Shown here: positions 55,129 to 62,785 of the stretch, piece by piece | How positions within the stretch are numbered: position 1 is the stretch's first letter | Layout: each line of letters starts with the position of its first letter | Source: SAR202 cluster bacterium bin16 | Lineage (GTDB): Bacteria; Chloroflexota; Dehalococcoidia; Lucifugimonadales; Australimonadaceae | DNA length: 64,000 nt | Reading direction: 5' to 3' | Assembly: GCA_002238425.1 (NCBI GenBank) | Contig: MPMJ01000006.1 | Span: forward strand, 5,149 to 69,148 | Notes under the pieces: generated by a model | Database searches by the model: none | Told to the model about the DNA's origin: nothing | Seen by the model: the letters and a program-made list of their open reading frames with translations, nothing else | Made by a program: the position numbers and the translations under genes

Positions 55129-55263
55129 CCGGTTAGCCCTCGCAGCATGGCGTATCCGGTAAGGGCAGCCGGGCAGACTCCCGAGATTCGCTTTCAAACT
55201 GTAACAGTGCCTGTCAGTGCGACCGCTTGGCATGGCAGTGCGGGCGTTGTACGCTCAGTCATT

Positions 55264-58200
55264 ATGGTTATTGCCGATACCCTCAGGGACGCGCAAGCGG
55301 TAGAAGACCGCATCAACGCGGTGTTCACGGCTTCATCGACCCGCGACCGTGCCCTAGTCGTGCGCAGCCTCTTTGCCGAGCAACTGGACTTTGACATGGA
55401 ATGGGGAACGGTGAGCCTCGCCGGAATACGCGGCGTGCAGCTACCGGCCGATGCCCACCGTATCGCCTCGGTGGAAGACGAAGTCGAAATCCTGTACGTG
55501 GATCTCGGCGAGACGCAGGCGGACACGAACCGCATTCGCAAGGCGGAGGTCGACGCTGTGGCAAAGCGCATCGCGGATGACCTTGGCGACGACCTGCTGC
55601 TCGTCTTCACTAACCGCGACGCTGACCAACTCCAACTCGTGCACCCGAAATTCGACGGGGCGCGCGTCACCCTCCGCCGCATGACTGTCGAGCGGGACCT
55701 GCCACGCCGCACCGCCTGCCAGCAGATCGCCGAGATATACAAGCAGTGGCGCGAGCCGGGCAAGACGCTCTCCCGCGCACTGGACGACGCCTTCAACGTC
55801 GAGGCCGTCACCAGCCGCTTCTTCAAAGAATACAAGCTCTTCTTCAAAGAGGCGGAGGGGAAGGTCGGCGGCTTCGGCGACGACGAGGAGGCGAAGCGCA
55901 TCTTCACGCTCACCCTCTTCAACCGTCTCATGTTTGTCTACTTTCTCTCCCGCAAGGGCTGGCTTACGTTCCGGGGAGACGCCGATTATCTCAACGCGAT
56001 CTGGGAAGACTACCGCGACCGGAACGACGAGCAGAACTTCTACAACGAACGGCTCGCTCCGCTCTTCGACCGCCTCCAGAACGAACACCTCATGGCATTG
56101 GAGAAGCACAACCCTGCGCTGTACGAGAAGATTGGCGAGCCGCCGTTCCTCAACGGCGGACTCTTCGCGGAGAGGAAGCCGCCAGGAGTGACCGTGCCCG
56201 ACGAGGCGGTACGCCCCGTCATCCGCGAACTGTTCGCTAGGTTCAACTTCACCGTCATGGAGTCCACGCCCTACGACGTCGAGGTGGCCGTGGACCCGGA
56301 GATGCTCGGCAAGGTGTTCGAGGAGTTGGTGAACGAGCGCAACAAGTCCGGCGCGTACTACACGCCGCGCACCGTCGTCTCCTACATGTGCCGCGAGGCG
56401 CTGAAGGGTTACGTCGCTACCGAATGCCCGGTCCTCCCCGAAAACGTCGTGGCTGCGTTCGTGGACGCGCACGACACCGCAGGCCTGCCGGTTGCGGAGG
56501 CCGCGTCAATCGCGCTCGCGCTCGAACGAGCCGCCATTGTCGATCCGGCCTGCGGCTCCGGGGCATATCTCCTTGGCATGATGCAAGAGCTCGTGGACAT
56601 GCACCTGGCCCTCTACCGTGCAGGCGTCACGCCCAAGAGCCTCTACGAGTTGAAACTGCGCATCATCGAGCGCAACCTCTATGGCGTCGACATAGACGAT
56701 TTTGCTGTCAACATCGCCATGCTCCGCCTCTGGCTCTCGCTCGCCATAGACTACGAGGGCGAGGTCAAGGACATCCCTCAGCTCCCCAACCTGGACTTCA
56801 AGATTGAGCGCGGGGACAGCCTGCTAGGCCCTGACCCCAGCCCCGACAACTATGGCGACCTTTTCCGCAACGCCGTGCGCGACAAGGCTAACGCCCTTGC
56901 CAAGGCCAAGGCGGACTACTTCACCGCCACCGGCGGTGAGAAGGCGAATGCCCTGCACACGATCCGTGAAGCCGAGGACGCGCTCAGGCAGTCTCTCGCC
57001 GAGGACAAGCCTGTCCCGGACGGCGCGGTGGACTGGCGCGTCGCCTTCGCCGACGTGTTTCACAGGCGCGGCGGCTTCGATGTGGCCATCGCCAACCCGC
57101 CCTACGTCCAGTTACAAAAGGACGGCGGGAGGCTCGGACGGCTCTACCAAGGCACGGGCTTCACAACGCTCGTGCGCTCCGGCGACATCTACCAGTTGTT
57201 CTATGAGCGGGGCTGCCAATTGCTGCGGGAGCGCGGCCTATTGGGCTACATCACTTCCAACTCCTGGCTCCGGGCGGAGTACGGCAAGCCGCTACGTCGC
57301 TACTTCGCCGAGCACCATGCGCCCCTCCGATACCTTGACTTGGGGAAAGATGTCTTCAAGAGCGCCATCGTGGACAGCGGCATCTTCCTCCTGCACACAG
57401 GCGGGAGTGCGGATGCGTTTCCCGCCGTGGACATGGACAAGCTTCCTCTGTGTGATTTCCCGCCACCGGACGACTTGTGGGGAACAGTACGACCAGATAT
57501 AGAAGCGCCGTGGAGTATCCTCTCACGTATCGAGCAGGGCGTTATGGACAAGATGCACACGCAGGGAATGCCGCTCAGTGAGTGGGAAGTCACAATCAAC
57601 ATGGGGATAAAAACTGGCTGCAATAATGCTTTCATCATCGACAAAGGAACGCGCGACACAATGATAGCACAGGATCCGAAGTCTGAACGAATCTTTAAAC
57701 CAGTGCTCCGTGGCCGAGACATCCATCGCTATCATGCTTCACATGCAGGTCAGTGGTTGATTGACACTCATAACGGTTATGACGATGTGCAGCCTGTCAA
57801 TGTACATGATTATCCTGCCATCGAGGCTCACTTAGACCAGTTTTATGCACATTTGGAGAAGCGGAATGACCAAGGTAGGACTCCATACAACCTCCGAGAC
57901 TGCGCCTATCACAATCTCTTCACACAAGAGAAACTGTTGTGGATGGATTTAACCGAACATGGCCGCTTCTTGTATGACGAAGGCAGGATGTTCTGCCTCA
58001 ATACAGTCTATATGATGTCTGGTGAATCTATTAAGTACCTGTGTGCAATCCTTAACTCCAGTCTCATCACTTGGTATATGAGAAGTACTGCACTGACTTC
58101 TGGGATGGGTGTAACTAGATGGTTTATTGTGTTTGTCGAGGCTATCCCTGTGCCCGAACTCTCTGCCATCGAACAGCGTCCGTTCGTCCGCCTCGTCGAC

Positions 58201-58464
58201 GCGATACTGGAGGCCAAAGCCGCCAACCCCGACGCCGACACGAGCGAGATGGAAGAGGAAATAGACTGGTTGGTCTATGACCTTTACGGCCTCACCAACG
58301 AAGAGACGGCAGCCGTGGCGGACTCCTTGTGGAACGGGCCGCTGAGTGAGGATGAGGAGGATACAGCATTGGTCCGCATCATCGAAGAAAGCCTGGAGGA
58401 AGGGCGCGGCGACATGGAGGAGGTGAGGCAGACACTGCGGGACTGGGATGGAACTCGAACGTAG
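55264..58464 (+). CDS. Eco57I/Type IIG-like N6-adenine methyltransferase with TRD and antitoxin-like tail
   Basis: LNGGLF, DPEMLGKVFE, GAYYTP, DPACGSG, NPPY, TaqI_C-like TRD, IDWLVYDLYGL followed by an extra ~45 aa. Confidence 0.9.
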   Translation: MVIADTLRDAQAVEDRINAVFTASSTRDRALVVRSLFAEQLDFDMEWGTVSLAGIRGVQLPADAHRIASVEDEVEILYVDLGETQADTNRIRKAEVDAVAKRIADDLGDDLLLVFTNRDADQLQLVHPKFDGARVTLRRMTVERDLPRRTACQQIAEIYKQWREPGKTLSRALDDAFNVEAVTSRFFKEYKLFFKEAEGKVGGFGDDEEAKRIFTLTLFNRLMFVYFLSRKGWLTFRGDADYLNAIWEDYRDRNDEQNFYNERLAPLFDRLQNEHLMALEKHNPALYEKIGEPPFLNGGLFAERKPPGVTVPDEAVRPVIRELFARFNFTVMESTPYDVEVAVDPEMLGKVFEELVNERNKSGAYYTPRTVVSYMCREALKGYVATECPVLPENVVAAFVDAHDTAGLPVAEAASIALALERAAIVDPACGSGAYLLGMMQELVDMHLALYRAGVTPKSLYELKLRIIERNLYGVDIDDFAVNIAMLRLWLSLAIDYEGEVKDIPQLPNLDFKIERGDSLLGPDPSPDNYGDLFRNAVRDKANALAKAKADYFTATGGEKANALHTIREAEDALRQSLAEDKPVPDGAVDWRVAFADVFHRRGGFDVAIANPPYVQLQKDGGRLGRLYQGTGFTTLVRSGDIYQLFYERGCQLLRERGLLGYITSNSWLRAEYGKPLRRYFAEHHAPLRYLDLGKDVFKSAIVDSGIFLLHTGGSADAFPAVDMDKLPLCDFPPPDDLWGTVRPDIEAPWSILSRIEQGVMDKMHTQGMPLSEWEVTINMGIKTGCNNAFIIDKGTRDTMIAQDPKSERIFKPVLRGRDIHRYHASHAGQWLIDTHNGYDDVQPVNVHDYPAIEAHLDQFYAHLEKRNDQGRTPYNLRDCAYHNLFTQEKLLWMDLTEHGRFLYDEGRMFCLNTVYMMSGESIKYLCAILNSSLITWYMRSTALTSGMGVTRWFIVFVEAIPVPELSAIEQRPFVRLVDAILEAKAANPDADTSEMEEEIDWLVYDLYGLTNEETAAVADSLWNGPLSEDEEDTALVRIIEESLEEGRGDMEEVRQTLRDWDGTRT

Positions 58465-58717
58465 CCGCAGGTTCGACCGCAATCTGAACCAGATACGTAA
58501 CGCAGCCCTCCGGAGGAGGGTAGAACGAGTGATTGCGGACATCGAAGCGGCTGCGAACATTACAGAAGCCGCAGGTATACGGAGGCTCGCCTCCACGAGC
58601 GGGCAATACTACCGCATCAGAATAGGAGACTACCGCATCCTCATCACAGTTGAAGGAGATACAGCGATCCTGTCAGGGTTCATGCACAGGAGCATCGCCT
58701 ACCGACAATTCCCGTGA
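58448..58717 (+). CDS. relE: RelE/ParE family toxin
   Basis: YYRIRIGDYRI, HRSIAYRQFP; overlaps the methyltransferase stop. Confidence 0.88.
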   Translation: MELERSRRFDRNLNQIRNAALRRRVERVIADIEAAANITEAAGIRRLASTSGQYYRIRIGDYRILITVEGDTAILSGFMHRSIAYRQFP

Positions 58718-58824
58718 CACGCCCTGACACCAAGACTCTCAGCCCACGAGTCCTGTGCTATGGTGAATCAAGGTTTCAAATGAAGGATCGGTCGCCAAGT
58801 GCAAGAAGGCGGAGGTATTGGCAG

Positions 58825-59085
58825 ATGAGCAAGAGGTCTGAGCAAGACGCTCTCCTTGTAGCTGCTATCGGGTTTGTCGCTGTCGGTGTCTTTATGGTTG
58901 CAGCGATTCAGAGTGGATTGCTGCCTTGGGCGTTCCTATTCGGCGCACTTGCGTTCACGGCAATGCTAGTACTCTCCCGTGACCTGAAACTTGCTTCTGG
59001 AGTGGGCGGGATCGTCACCGTGCTGATAACGATGATAGGCGTCGCCAATGTCCTTTCTCCAGGATGGCACCAGAACTTGCTTTGA
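58825..59085 (+). CDS. Small 3-TM membrane protein
   Basis: GGAGG RBS; three hydrophobic helices. Confidence 0.55.
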   Translation: MSKRSEQDALLVAAIGFVAVGVFMVAAIQSGLLPWAFLFGALAFTAMLVLSRDLKLASGVGGIVTVLITMIGVANVLSPGWHQNLL

Positions 59086-59120
59086 GGACTGCCTCAAGGG
59101 TCCGGTGTGAGAGAAACGGC

Positions 59121-59276
59121 ATGAGCATCAGGGTGAGGGCAAGGTTCTCCAACGGCGTGCTTATGCCGCTGGAACCGCTCGACCTTGAGGAAGGCCGCGA
59201 ATACGTAATCACCATCGAGTATGAGCCCGTGCCCGACCGCGGCGCTGAAGGCCAACCCGAAGAACCCGCCCCGTGA
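59121..59276 (+). CDS. DUF104-like antitoxin-family protein
   Basis: VRARFSNGVLMPLEPLDLEEG signature; GTGA overlap with the helicase start. Confidence 0.75.
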   Translation: MSIRVRARFSNGVLMPLEPLDLEEGREYVITIEYEPVPDRGAEGQPEEPAP

Positions 59277-62200
59277 ACATCCTCCACGCGCATACCGACC
59301 CGCCTCTGCTGGAGCGCCTCCAGGAGATGCTGGCCGGGTCTGCGCGAGCCGACATTGCGGTCGGCTACTTCTTCATCAGCGGCTTCGGCCCCCTCGCTGA
59401 GAGCCTGTCGCACGGGGGCATGGAGCGGGTGCGCATCCTGGTCGGGCACGTAGACCGGCCCGTGCTGGAGCAGGTGGCCTACGGCCTGCAGCAGGCGGAA
59501 GCGCTCCGTTTGCAGCAGGAGCAGGACGGTCTCGTGCGGCGCAGTGCGCGGGAGGAAGGCGTCCGCCGCGCCGCCGCCAGCGTTGGCGTGGGAGTGTCGC
59601 TCCTTCCGCAGAGTGAGGAGTCAGAGCAAGCGGTCGACACGCTGCGCGATCTCGTAGCCTCCGGCCGGGTGGAAGTGCGCTCGTACCCGCGCGGACCGCT
59701 CCACGCGAAAGCGTACCTCTGCTGGTACGCGAACCATCCCGAACCCGGCTCAGCCGTCGTGGGTTCGTCGAACCTGACGCTTGCGGGGTTCACGCACAAC
59801 ACTGAACTGAACGTGCGGGTGACCGGCGACGCGGAGATGACTGAGTTGGGCCGCTGGTTCGACGAACTGTGGGCGGACTCGGACGACATCGGCAAGGAGT
59901 TGGTGACGCAACTGGACAAGTCGTGGGCGCTGGCGGCCACGACTCCCTACGAGGTCTACCTGAAAGCGCTCTACGAACTGTACGGCGGCCAGATGGGAGA
60001 GGACCTGCCGCTCGACCAGGGGCGCACTGCGGAACTGGCGAACTTCCAGTTGGACGCGGTCAGGCAGGCGCTCAACATGGTTGTCGCGTATGGAGGCTGC
60101 TACATCGGCGACGTGGTGGGGCTCGGCAAGACGTACATCGGCGCGGAGACGCTGCGACAGCTACGAGTGACCTACCCGAACGACGGCCCGCCGCTCATCA
60201 TCTGCCCTCCCGGGCTCATCCCCATGTGGCGCTTCTTCAACGAGCGCTTCGGGCTGGGTGCGGAAGTCATCTCGCACGCCGTCATCAGCGCACCGCCCGA
60301 CCCTGAATTCGACGAAGAGTCCGGCCGCTACCTGGACGAGGATGGAGCGGCCACCGGCGTCGTCCTCGAAGACACCTACCCGAACCGGGGGCCTGTCCTG
60401 GTGGACGAAGCGCACAACTTCCGCAACGTGAACCGGCGGTCGCGGGGACTGCGCCACTACCTCGAATCGGGCAATCACAAGGTCGTGCTGCTGAGCGCAA
60501 CGCCTCAGAACCTCGGTCCCCAGGACATCTATCGCCAAATCAGCCTCTTCCTCGACGATGAGGACCACGGCCTCGACATCGAGCCGGTCAACCTGCCCGA
60601 CTACTTCCGCAACGCGCAGCGGTGGTTCCAGTATCGGACGGAAGAAGAGAACTACAAGGCCGACTACGCCGCATGGGATGCTGGCGGTCGGACGGGCGCC
60701 GCGCCGATGAACAAGCCGGTGGAGCCCGACGTCCCCCCTGCCAGCATAGAAGAGGTGCTGGGGCCGGTGTTCATACGGCGGCGGCGCAAGGACATCAAGG
60801 AGTTGTACGGAGACAGCGCGGAGGTGAACGGCAAGCCCGTCCAGTTCCCCGATCCGGAACTGGACAACCTGACGTACCAGCTCGACAAGGTATATGCGAG
60901 GGCAGGTTCGCTGGCGGAGATACAGGCGCTGATCCAGAGCCACCAGGGAGCGCGCTACCGGGCTGCCCACTATCTCACCAGGGAAGCCGCAAAGCGCCCG
61001 GAATACCGCGACCTCTCCCGTGCAAGTGACCGGATCGCGGGCCTGATGCGCGTGCTGCTGCTCAAGCGGCTGGAGTCGAGCATCGAAGCGTTCCGTTCCA
61101 CGCTGCGGAACCTGATCCAGAGCAATCGCAACTTCGCACAGGCGCTCGCAGGCGGCTACGTTCCCATCGGTCAGACCGCAACGCGGATACTTAACGGGGA
61201 ATCCTTCGACAGCGACAGCCTGCTTGCAGTGCTTGAGGCCGAGGAGCAGCGGAGGCGGGAGCGTGGAGCGCGGCGAGAAACACTCATCCACTCGACACAC
61301 GATTTCCGTGTCGACGAGTGGCAACGGGACCTCGACGCCGACCATGCCGTCCTTCAGGACCTGCTGAGCCGTATGGAGAACGTCGGTCCCGACGACGACG
61401 ACAAGCTGCGAGCACTGCGCGAATTCCTGGACCGCAAAGAGGTACGCTCCGGCAAGGTGCTCATCTTCTCCGAAGCCGAAACAACTATCGAGTATCTGTA
61501 TGGGCAACTTGATCCGAACGACGACATCCCAGAGCTCGAACGGCTCACGGGCAGTAACCGCGATCAGGCCTCAGCAATCGTGCGGCGCTTCTCTCCGCGT
61601 TCGAACCCTTCGAACGTGCGTGTCGCGCAGGAGATAAGAGTCTTGCTGGCAACGGACGTCGTCTCGGAAGGTCAGAACCTGCAGGACTGCGCCCGCGTGC
61701 TCAACTACGACCTCCACTGGAACCCCGTCCGCCTCATCCAGCGGTTCGGGCGCGTCGACCGCATCGGGACGGAGCATGAGGTCATCAACCTCCACAACAT
61801 GTGGCCGGACACCGCCGTCGACGCGGGGCTGGAACTCACAGATCGGCTGCACAACCGCGTGCAGTCGTTCCATGACCTGATAGGGCTGGACAGCAAGTTG
61901 CTCTCCGAGTCCGAACGCCTGAACAACGAGGCGATGTACCGCATCTACGCGGAGAAGGAGATGCCGGAAGCAACGGACGGCTTGGACTCCGTGGCCGCGA
62001 GCCAGCGCGCTATCGCGTTGCTTCAACGCATCAGGGAGAGCGAGCCCGACAAGTGGGAGTGGCTAACCACGCTGCCCGACGGCATCCGCTCAGCCCTGAT
62101 GGGCCGTGGCCCCCGGAGTGTGCTCAGCACGGCAGAGTCCGACAACAACGCAGACTACATCCAGAGACCCATGGAGGTAGACGGAGCGCAGATGCCGCTG

Positions 62201-62785
62201 GTATCGCCATCCACACCCGGTAGCGAGCCGTCCGCCTTTGAGGACCCCCGTCCGGGTGAAACGTTGGTGTTGCTGGCAACCGGCGACGTGAAGGCGTGCT
62301 ATGCCGTGGGAGGCAACCTCGTTCCCCGGCCCATCGGAACCGCCCAGTTCACCGCCGCAGCCGAATGCGAACCGGATACTCCCGCACAACTGCTGCCCGA
62401 GGACACGAACGAGCGCGTTATGGCCGCGTTCGAATCCTTCCGGGAGAGCATCGCCAGGAGGCTTGGCAGTGCACGACGCCCCAGAGGAAGCCGCAGCCGT
62501 CAGTACGTGTCGCGTCAACTGAGGATTGCGCGGGATGCGGAGGACAACCCGGCAACAATCCAACGCATCAACGACCTGCGGCTGATCTTCCAAGGCAGCC
62601 TTCCCGAGCAAGCGGAGCGGGCGTTGGCAGACCTCGCTGCCCATCGGATAGAGGGACAGGCCCTACTGGACCGCCTGAACGCCTTGCGCGAGCGGTACCG
62701 GCTCAACCCGCCGGACAGGCAGGACGCCGACACAGCGGGCGCACCACATGTGGTGCGCATCGTCTGCTCGGACGGGTTGATTTGA
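59273..62785 (+). CDS. PLD nuclease-SNF2-type helicase fusion
   Basis: HAKAY...GSSNLT...NTELN; DVVGLGKT, DEAH, SATP, SEGQNLQ, QRFGRVDR. Confidence 0.9.
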   Translation: MNILHAHTDPPLLERLQEMLAGSARADIAVGYFFISGFGPLAESLSHGGMERVRILVGHVDRPVLEQVAYGLQQAEALRLQQEQDGLVRRSAREEGVRRAAASVGVGVSLLPQSEESEQAVDTLRDLVASGRVEVRSYPRGPLHAKAYLCWYANHPEPGSAVVGSSNLTLAGFTHNTELNVRVTGDAEMTELGRWFDELWADSDDIGKELVTQLDKSWALAATTPYEVYLKALYELYGGQMGEDLPLDQGRTAELANFQLDAVRQALNMVVAYGGCYIGDVVGLGKTYIGAETLRQLRVTYPNDGPPLIICPPGLIPMWRFFNERFGLGAEVISHAVISAPPDPEFDEESGRYLDEDGAATGVVLEDTYPNRGPVLVDEAHNFRNVNRRSRGLRHYLESGNHKVVLLSATPQNLGPQDIYRQISLFLDDEDHGLDIEPVNLPDYFRNAQRWFQYRTEEENYKADYAAWDAGGRTGAAPMNKPVEPDVPPASIEEVLGPVFIRRRRKDIKELYGDSAEVNGKPVQFPDPELDNLTYQLDKVYARAGSLAEIQALIQSHQGARYRAAHYLTREAAKRPEYRDLSRASDRIAGLMRVLLLKRLESSIEAFRSTLRNLIQSNRNFAQALAGGYVPIGQTATRILNGESFDSDSLLAVLEAEEQRRRERGARRETLIHSTHDFRVDEWQRDLDADHAVLQDLLSRMENVGPDDDDKLRALREFLDRKEVRSGKVLIFSEAETTIEYLYGQLDPNDDIPELERLTGSNRDQASAIVRRFSPRSNPSNVRVAQEIRVLLATDVVSEGQNLQDCARVLNYDLHWNPVRLIQRFGRVDRIGTEHEVINLHNMWPDTAVDAGLELTDRLHNRVQSFHDLIGLDSKLLSESERLNNEAMYRIYAEKEMPEATDGLDSVAASQRAIALLQRIRESEPDKWEWLTTLPDGIRSALMGRGPRSVLSTAESDNNADYIQRPMEVDGAQMPLVSPSTPGSEPSAFEDPRPGETLVLLATGDVKACYAVGGNLVPRPIGTAQFTAAAECEPDTPAQLLPEDTNERVMAAFESFRESIARRLGSARRPRGSRSRQYVSRQLRIARDAEDNPATIQRINDLRLIFQGSLPEQAERALADLAAHRIEGQALLDRLNALRERYRLNPPDRQDADTAGAPHVVRIVCSDGLI

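Follow-up and report, generated by a model that had tools for sequence, protein, structure and literature searches.

In the SAR202 cluster bacterium bin16 (Chloroflexota; Dehalococcoidia), a gene for a RelE-family toxin overlaps the 3' end of a gene for a large DNA methyltransferase (MTase) and is not preceded by an antitoxin gene of its own, which raises the question of what restrains the toxin. The two genes lie in the stretch of 64,000 nucleotides (nt) that was analysed (contig MPMJ01000006.1, positions 5,149 to 69,148 of the forward strand; hereafter the window, to which coordinates refer unless another genome or locus is named). An initial annotation of these letters proposed that the MTase is itself the antitoxin. 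Homology, co-occurrence, conservation within a clade and co-folding now lend computational support to that proposal, and no antitoxin candidate other than the MTase has emerged for the RelE that overlaps it. The MTase is probably the antitoxin: its carboxyl-terminal tail would capture RelE and hold it on the enzyme, and RelE would be freed when the supply of MTase is lost or the tail is removed. Binding of RelE by the tail is predicted by structural modelling; neutralisation of the toxin, lability of the tail, the trigger for release and the biological pay-off are what we infer from it.

The methyltransferase, its tail and the overlapping toxin gene

55264..58464, + strand: Eco57I/PglX-type N6-adenine DNA MTase with a TaqI_C-like specificity domain (Pfam, PADLOC, NPPY motif)
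58261..58305, + strand: last conserved helix of the MTase family, IDxLVYxLYGLTxEE (alignment to tail-less relatives)
58321..58461, + strand: RelB-like tail in continuous frame with the MTase, consisting of an acidic linker and two predicted helices (BLASTP, hidden Markov model (HMM), hhalign, co-fold)
58448..58717, + strand: gene for a RelE-family toxin of 89 amino acids (aa) (PF05016, 3bpq_B, invariant residues)

The MTase is encoded in a single frame on the + strand (55147..58464, 1105 aa), in which M40 at 55264 is the likely start because a database protein that is 100% identical (P0005) has 1066 aa; residues of the MTase are numbered here according to P0005, to which 39 must be added for the numbering of the 1105-aa frame. 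The translation matches the Pfam models Eco57I (PF07669, 2.6e-35) and TaqI_C (PF12950, 4.9e-14) and the PADLOC model REase_MTase_IIG (1.4e-138), and contains the motif NPPY; thus it has the Eco57I domain, the NPPY motif and the TaqI_C-like domain by which Eco57I/PglX-type N6-adenine MTases are recognized. Tail-less relatives terminate 0-15 residues past the motif of the last conserved helix (28 of the 29 other loci of the class sample, and most metagenome loci), whereas the window MTase continues to a TAG stop at 58462..58464, so that its extension amounts to about 40-45 aa. In an AlphaFold2 model of the full-length MTase folded without RelE (mean predicted local distance difference test score, pLDDT, 72), the body scores 84-93 up to about residue 1022, as do residues 990-1020 at its end, and the scores drop below 50 for residues 1024-1066, which are modelled as two unanchored helices. 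The low score of the tail fits an appended module that would fold upon binding.

The relE start codon (ATG, 58448) overlaps the MTase stop by 17 nt. RelE matches PF05016 with 25.4 bits (cut-off 23, E 2.2e-5, residues 6-85 of 89), and its best solved relative is RelE3 of Methanocaldococcus jannaschii (3bpq_B, E 1.1e-7 over 83 residues), with 1WMI also among the matches in the PDB. Both the RelE/ParE superfamily profile (PF05016) and similarity to solved RelE proteins therefore place it in the family, on the RelE3-like branch, and by family its cleavage activity is predicted; RelE-family toxins are ribosome-dependent mRNA endonucleases. Eight residues that are invariant in 17 homologues (Y55, R56, R58, G60, R63, R81, Y85 and R86) are all kept in the window RelE, and the conserved Arg and Tyr positions are presumably catalytic, as in RelE of E. 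coli and archaea.

No separate antitoxin open reading frame (ORF) precedes relE, the other + strand frames in its vicinity (58119..58280 and 58127..58264) ending more than 160 nt upstream, and a profile of the antitoxin tail found no match on the window contig except the MTase. Fused pairs and the stand-alone pairs of Chloroflexota alike have a stop-start overlap of either 11 or 17 nt, and the window pair has the usual arrangement of an antitoxin encoded directly upstream of its toxin and overlapping it. Three statements of the initial annotation are borne out by these data: that the MTase runs about 45 aa beyond the usual terminus of its family (from the frame, the family-end motif at 58261 and the tail-less relatives), that its stop overlaps relE by 17 nt (the coordinates agree), and that no relB stands between them (from the ORF list and the tail-profile search of the contig).

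Homology of the tail to RelB-type antitoxins

The same genome encodes, on another contig (C97), a paralogous RelE that is 49% identical to the window RelE and is preceded by a stand-alone antitoxin ORF of about 52 aa, the stop of which overlaps relE by 11 nt. BLASTP aligns this antitoxin to the MTase tail with 16 of 36 residues identical (E 8e-8 for the pair). An HMM made from the tails of 77 homologous MTases, built to guard against compositional bias, was compared with every six-frame ORF of 30 aa or more in the whole genome (53,358 ORFs); it retrieved the MTase (3e-13) and the C97 antitoxin (1e-12), with the next ORF at 0.38, and by these scores the likeness of the tail to the C97 antitoxin exceeds chance. 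In other genomes, 12,118 ORFs from 98 RelE loci yielded 67 matches to the tail HMM in 65 loci (E <=0.01). Among the 80 RelE loci that came from the genome_contigs collection, 53 have such a match, and 49 of the matches are to an ORF that ends at the start of relE.

Comparison of profiles extends the relationship to a solved complex. The MTase tails align by hhalign with the carboxyl termini of 66 stand-alone antitoxins over 37 columns (probability 97%, E 1.1e-10), which places the two groups in one family at the level of profiles. A joint profile of 76 tails and antitoxin carboxyl termini has the consensus ExxEDxALxxAIxEGxxxxxVSRxxIFxxL, in agreement with the ending EDxxLxxAIEEG...EEIxxxL that the initial annotation had given for antitoxins of this subfamily; in the 77 MTases there is little or no variation at the positions E-E-E-D-x-A and at a distal Leu. 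Against solved proteins, the sole significant match of the joint profile is RelB3 of M. jannaschii (3bpq_A, E 0.0016; next 0.36), so that the two chains of a single complex, 3BPQ, are matched by the tail/antitoxin profile (chain A) and by the window RelE (chain B). The Pfam RelB-like models PF18506 and PF25734 match 47 and 45, respectively, of the 76 aligned members, and some relatives reach RelB models below the cut-off: the L027 tail (2.8e-5), the L002 antitoxin (4.1e-5), the L007 antitoxin (0.018) and the MTase tail of L026 (0.13). The antitoxin-like character that had been supposed for the tail is thus apparent from hhalign, from the C97 antitoxin and from 3bpq_A. On this sequence evidence, the putative assignment of the window tail passes in a chain to the family of MTase tails, from there to the stand-alone antitoxins of Chloroflexota, and from these to the RelB-like family. 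Antitoxins of this type are small proteins of about 50-90 aa, and the module in the window is instead the carboxyl terminus of a 1066-aa enzyme.

Predicted complex of the tail with RelE

RelE was co-folded with the last 66 residues of the MTase in three runs and with three controls, using alignments made for this analysis. The interface score ipSAE was 0.66, 0.44 and 0.61 (median 0.61) compared with 0.01 for the best of the three controls. Of 80 solved complexes, 58 reach the mark set for the tool, as do 2 of 110 mismatched pairs. At least 59% of the contacts are common to the runs, and the partner pLDDT is 52-64. The predicted interface comprises residues 1027 and 1030-1062 of the tail, and residues of RelE that include 56, 81 and 83-85. 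The association of the MTase carboxyl terminus with RelE that the initial annotation implied thus passed its controls.

Distribution of the fusion and its co-occurrence with RelE

A RelE of the window's subfamily is present in 19 of 401 genomes of the phylum sample. The arrangement of the window recurs in one of these, a complete genome from another family of the phylum (G059), which encodes a tailed MTase of 1076 aa that is 49% identical to that of the window over its full length, tail included, followed by relE (11-nt overlap with the MTase stop) and then by PLD and helicase genes that are separate from each other. In species-representative genomes, the best 80 RelE loci include four with full-length MTase-tail fusions (L026, L028, L030 and L056) and four with short ORFs consisting of the MTase carboxyl-terminal subdomain and the tail (L027, L032, L039 and the degenerate L100); in about 68 the antitoxin is small and stands alone. 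Every fused case comes from Dehalococcoidia or other Chloroflexota assemblies. The combination of fusion and relE is therefore not a one-off, being found in G059, L026, L028, L030 and L056, and a chimeric assembly or a frameshift artefact is excluded by a protein cluster identical to the 1066-aa MTase and by about 100 other tailed clusters.

In a collection of 5.8 billion proteins, 245 match the last 146 residues of the MTase. At least 35 aa follow the terminal motif in 100 of the best 120 of these, of which 92 also fit a loose acidic-ED-x-A-L pattern; P0090 and P0107 have full tails by eye that the anchor pattern misses. The list is biased towards tails because the query contained the tail. 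A maximum-likelihood tree of 105 of these MTases, calculated with the tail cut off, has full tails in 83 members, on both deep branches, and partial (13) or absent (9) tails scattered over it, requiring at least 14 changes. This pattern suggests that the fusion is old and has been eroded repeatedly.

Co-occurrence was assessed in 135 loci located through the MTase rather than through RelE (30 from the class sample of 401 genomes, 25 more from the phylum sample and 80 from metagenomes). Tail and RelE are both present in three (the window, G531 and G059), both are missing from 132, and no locus is discordant; a few of the metagenome negatives are weak because little sequence follows the MTase stop. 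The 80 metagenome loci, which come from a JGI scan, are all among the negatives, none having a RelB-like tail or a RelE. Within the window's genus, an MTase homologue (L133, from genome G739) ends in a different extension of 55 aa and is not accompanied by RelE. The module is therefore not common even to the genus sample, in which MTase matches of any kind are confined to one of the three other genomes.

The tail also occurs on a family of stand-alone proteins of about 152-171 aa, each consisting of a short unique amino terminus, a homologue of the last ~100 residues of the MTase and the RelB-like tail (for example L027:4008-4511, L032, L039, L056:4605-5084 and L026:7466-7966). Of 113 database matches to this family, which is apparently unannotated (the designation is 'hypothetical protein' where there is one), 90 begin with Met and carry the complete tail, and relE usually follows. 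In L027, L032 and L039 the short form and relE have no MTase body or helicase within 4.5 kb; in L056 the short form constitutes a second module between a fused MTase-RelE pair and the helicase. We infer that the short forms are derived from the fusion, because an antitoxin would not otherwise hold an MTase subdomain. More generally, stand-alone antitoxins of this RelE subfamily share with the window tail the carboxyl-terminal module, the position and the overlap with relE, and differ in the amino-terminal partner of that module: a helical domain, an AF2212-like domain, none (the tail-only form of 52 aa) or the MTase subdomain (the form of ~152 aa).

Operon and defence island

58714..59085, + strand: ORF for a small predicted membrane protein of 123 aa (4-nt overlap with the relE stop; no family match)
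59064..59276, + strand: ORF for an AF2212-like small protein without a toxin-binding tail, likely start 59121 (PF01954, 5.2e-9)
59273..62785, + strand: PLD (HKD) nuclease-SNF2-type helicase fusion, 1170 aa (Pfam PLDc_2, Helicase_C)

The genes for the MTase, RelE, the membrane protein, the AF2212-like protein and the helicase lie on one strand with overlaps of 4-22 nt. A scan for promoters and terminators gave nothing above chance (3 promoter-like sequences against 1.7 +/- 1.1 expected, and 4 terminator-like sequences against 6.7 +/- 2.6), and PADLOC has no model for RelE, the membrane protein or the AF2212-like protein. The helicase matches the PADLOC models 'HKD+Snf2' (1.9e-54) and DrmD (2.5e-38); it is presumed to be the restriction or effector partner of the MTase and is not a classical restriction enzyme. 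A weak homologue of the membrane protein ORF occupies the same relative place in L030 (tblastn 2.5e-4).

The AF2212-like gene, the stop of which overlaps the helicase start by 4 nt, has counterparts before the helicase in L030 and L056. Its product is 58% identical (19 of 33 residues, E 8e-15) to the amino-terminal domain of the L007 antitoxin, in which an AF2212-like domain carries the tail. The two halves of this antitoxin type (L007-L010) are thus split in the window, into an AF2212-like gene without a tail and a tail on the MTase.

Beyond the downstream end of the window (L216, in window-equivalent coordinates) are a gene for the Tiamat protein TmtA (64614..68009; PADLOC, 6.2e-161), a gene for a DUF4062-NACHT protein (68615..71362) and, on the opposite strand, a gene for a ResIII/Helicase_C helicase (71976..74384(-)). 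These genes make the region a defence island.

How the tail may restrain RelE, and to what end

According to the mechanism that we propose, the operon would encode a restriction-like defence pair, the N6-adenine MTase and the PLD-SNF2 helicase-nuclease, and an antitoxin that would exist only as the tail of ~45 residues on the MTase, homologous to the carboxyl-terminal part of RelB-type antitoxins that wraps the toxin. The free tail would be a flexible appendage of two helices; when bound, it would cover the conserved Arg/Tyr face of RelE, the product of an overlapping and presumably translationally coupled gene. With this face covered, RelE would be held inactive, one to one, on the MTase, and its activity would be tied to the continuing supply of intact MTase. 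If synthesis of the MTase stopped, through host shut-off by a phage or loss of the locus, or if the tail were clipped, RelE would be freed and translation would stall, an outcome that would serve to stabilise the defence locus as well as to provide dormancy or an abortive back-up.

Several observations weigh against the MTase being the antitoxin. The window tail itself, taken as 48, 60 or 67 aa, does not match PF18506 or PF25734 at E up to 10, nor any antitoxin family of NCBIfam, nor any antitoxin in the PDB by phmmer; against the HMM of the 66 distant stand-alone antitoxin carboxyl termini it scores 2.5 bits (E 340, near rank 100), and that HMM does detect the C97 antitoxin (1.4e-4). Since direct matches fail, its membership in the RelB-like family is transitive, at the level of profiles; the tail is also acidic and short. 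An enzyme of 1066 aa would be an unusual 'labile antitoxin'. One co-fold run reached 0.44, the pLDDT of the partner is only 52-64, and success in the co-fold may reflect memory of, or likeness to, the solved RelBE complexes (3BPQ and 1WMI), the existence of which makes it possibly not independent evidence. Tails are truncated or absent in 22 of the 105 members of the clade, and in species-representative genomes tailed MTases are rare, being found in 3 of 70 MTase-positive genomes of the two genome samples. An MTase on the sister branch within the window's five-member subclade (P0014) has an internal gap of 14 residues in its tail; its contig and that of an intact RelE that is 87% identical to the window RelE (P0001) are both 2,854,006 nt long, from which it would follow that a full tail may not always be needed. 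If the two genes are neighbours, either the shortened tail may suffice or the P0001 RelE may be on its way out. Finally, the in-frame codons GTG 58315 and TTG 58327 lie between the last MTase helix and the tail. Separately, the best PDB match of the tail, ZnO7 (11cm_A, E 0.0049), was judged spurious.

Those two codons are the starting point of an alternative in which the real antitoxin is a small polypeptide that arises through internal initiation or through clipping of the MTase, and the covalent link is incidental. A tail-only antitoxin of 52 aa suffices for the C97 paralog, and the linker is acidic and predicted to be flexible, as this alternative would have it. Among the linkers that were fully displayed, no start is conserved (none in L026 or L114, none after the motif in L056, one ATG in L028; those of L025 and L030 were displayed in part), neither window codon is preceded by a run resembling a Shine-Dalgarno sequence in a simple test, and the amino-terminal segment of the ~152-aa forms is not seen, by eye, in MTase sequences; a separate small antitoxin is accordingly improbable. 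More improbable still is that the tail is decaying, with RelE either inactive or neutralised otherwise, for instance by the AF2212-like protein encoded 350 nt downstream. The window tail is diverged, and the resemblance of that protein to the amino-terminal domain of genuine antitoxins of the same subfamily (the 58% identity given above) would suit such a substitution. Decay is contradicted by the near-invariance of E-E-E-D-x-A and the distal Leu in the 77 MTases and by the retention of all family-invariant residues in RelE; moreover, the AF2212-like ORF is without a toxin-binding motif and unmatched by the tail HMM, and G059 has the fusion and RelE with no AF2212-like gene.

What the arrangement is for is a question on which the same data bear less decisively. 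It is a possibility, which we advance tentatively, that the tail constitutes a built-in guard that ties programmed arrest of translation to the integrity of an immune enzyme: RelE would stay silent as long as intact MTase, alone or in complex with the PLD-SNF2 helicase, continues to be produced, and shut-off of host expression by a phage, degradation or blocking of the MTase, or loss of the island would unleash it. A stricter, PrrC-like version, in which RelE is a dedicated abortive-infection back-up of the restriction system and is released by a specific event (binding of the MTase by a phage anti-restriction protein, the presence of unmodified DNA, or a PLD-SNF2 effector that fails), seems rather unlikely. 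It would account for the fact that the window, G059, L030 and L056 all have RelE within the operon of MTase and helicase, for the covalent link kept across a deep clade, and for the location of the locus in a defence island with Tiamat and NACHT genes just downstream; inhibition of associated toxins by immunity components has been proposed, with PrrC as the precedent (PMC3506569). On the other hand, no sequence feature indicates an allosteric switch, the generic RelB module is also found on proteins of 52-170 aa that are unconnected to any MTase or helicase, and simple titration accounts for all the data. It is about as doubtful that the module is purely selfish, a RelBE cassette that lost its antitoxin start and became joined to the MTase gene at its 3' end, stabilising the island without any part in phage defence and persisting because deletion of that 3' end kills the cell. 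The remnants in L027, L032 and L039, in which precisely the MTase 3' subdomain, the tail and relE have survived, with no MTase body or helicase nearby, are what such addiction would leave, as are the wide spread of the ~152-aa stand-alone form (90 of 113, as above) and the scattering of tail losses over the tree. It leaves unexplained, however, why 83 of 105 clade members carry the fusion rather than an adjacent small gene, and it is compatible with a role in defence.

Comparison with known systems

The closest solved counterpart is RelBE3 of M. jannaschii (3BPQ), which resembles the window pair in both chains, the window RelE being like chain B and the tail profile like chain A. The systems represented by RelBE3, PF18506 and PF25734 share with it an upstream antitoxin that overlaps the start of the toxin and the motif ED-x-x-L-x-x-A-I-x-E-G ... 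V-S-R-x-x-I-F-x-x-L, and differ from it in that the window module is the last ~45 residues of a 1066-aa MTase and reaches no Pfam RelB model. In architecture the window pair is a novel form of type II toxin-antitoxin pair that is built into a restriction-like system of MTase and PLD-SNF2 helicase; full-text literature searches, to which the supplementary effector tables of PMC12839542 did not belong, gave no description of an MTase-RelB fusion.

Toxins often occur without an antitoxin in restriction, BREX-like and CRISPR loci, and immunity proteins have long been proposed to restrain them, PrrC being given as the sole worked example (PMC3506569). PrrC-EcoprrI comprises a translation-blocking anticodon nuclease that is encoded in a type Ic restriction-modification locus and presumed to be restrained by the proteins of that locus (PMC3506569). 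The likeness to the window is one of logic only, in that a translation-blocking RNase is encoded in a locus of restriction-modification type. PrrC is an ABC-ATPase/HEPN protein, held non-covalently and with no antitoxin-like sequence in its partner, whereas the window has a RelE and an antitoxin module that is covalently part of the MTase. PrrC is activated by phage peptides. The window pair does not belong among PrrC-type guards, its toxin being of the RelE family and its MTase not an HsdM. The analogy with PrrC-EcoprrI that was drawn at the outset therefore stands for the functional logic and falls for homology, because PrrC is an unrelated HEPN/ABC protein.

The juxtaposition of a PglX/Eco57I-like MTase with an HKD nuclease-SNF2 helicase recalls 'Type-2 BR' and DISARM systems (PMC12839542). 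Membership in DISARM was rejected: the NCBIfam DrmD model gives 153.6 bits against a cut-off of 610, and no DrmA or DrmB (DUF1998) is found among the neighbours scanned. Membership in Type-2 BR was likewise rejected on the basis that neither DUF499 nor DUF3780 is encoded in the operon or in the 14 kb downstream, which was the extent of the search. The back-up RNases named in the passages of PMC12839542 considered are HEPN, Schlafen and PIN proteins, and neither RelE nor an antitoxin tail is mentioned there. PezAT, a type II toxin-antitoxin pair, is joined to the nuclease/helicase defence system Hachiman (PMC13064477); PezAT differs from the window pair in being a complete separate module that acts as a transcriptional repressor, the window antitoxin having no gene of its own.

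If the guard reading is true, an immunity protein would here for the first time reveal in its own sequence the 'missing antitoxin' of a toxin linked to defence, in line with the hypothesis of PMC3506569. The putative restraint is legible as a RelB module on a modification enzyme, conserved in a large clade and, in loci located through the MTase, present only where RelE follows. It reduces the hypothesis to a simple testable system of a ~45-residue tail and an 89-residue toxin. It also illustrates how toxin-antitoxin modules may be domesticated, or may hitch-hike, by fusion to a host gene, and the tail could find use as a transferable tag by which RelE is tethered to a protein of choice.

Other carboxyl-terminal additions in the methyltransferase family

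Additions at the carboxyl terminus seem to be common in this MTase family. A conserved extension of ~55 aa that is unrelated to RelB is shared by seven loci (L143, L144, L160, L162, L174, L176 and L183), and the homologue in metagenome locus L210 has an extension of a different kind, 234 aa long. L026 contains another MTase carboxyl-terminal fragment (L026:6371-7042), fused to a different carboxyl terminus without a RelB-like tail and followed by an overlapping ORF of 123 aa (L026:7039-7410), which may represent a different toxin-antitoxin-like pairing on the same MTase subdomain. Many tail-less relatives are accompanied by a second, convergent and partial copy of the MTase carboxyl-terminal (specificity) region, which lies at a distance of 40-60 nt from where the full gene ends (G552:C1:1006856-1007831, G594:C1:1241141-1242099, G537:C1:2476806-2477773, and in G542, G396, G560, G310 and G286). 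This layout resembles the invertible specificity cassettes of phase-variable restriction systems.

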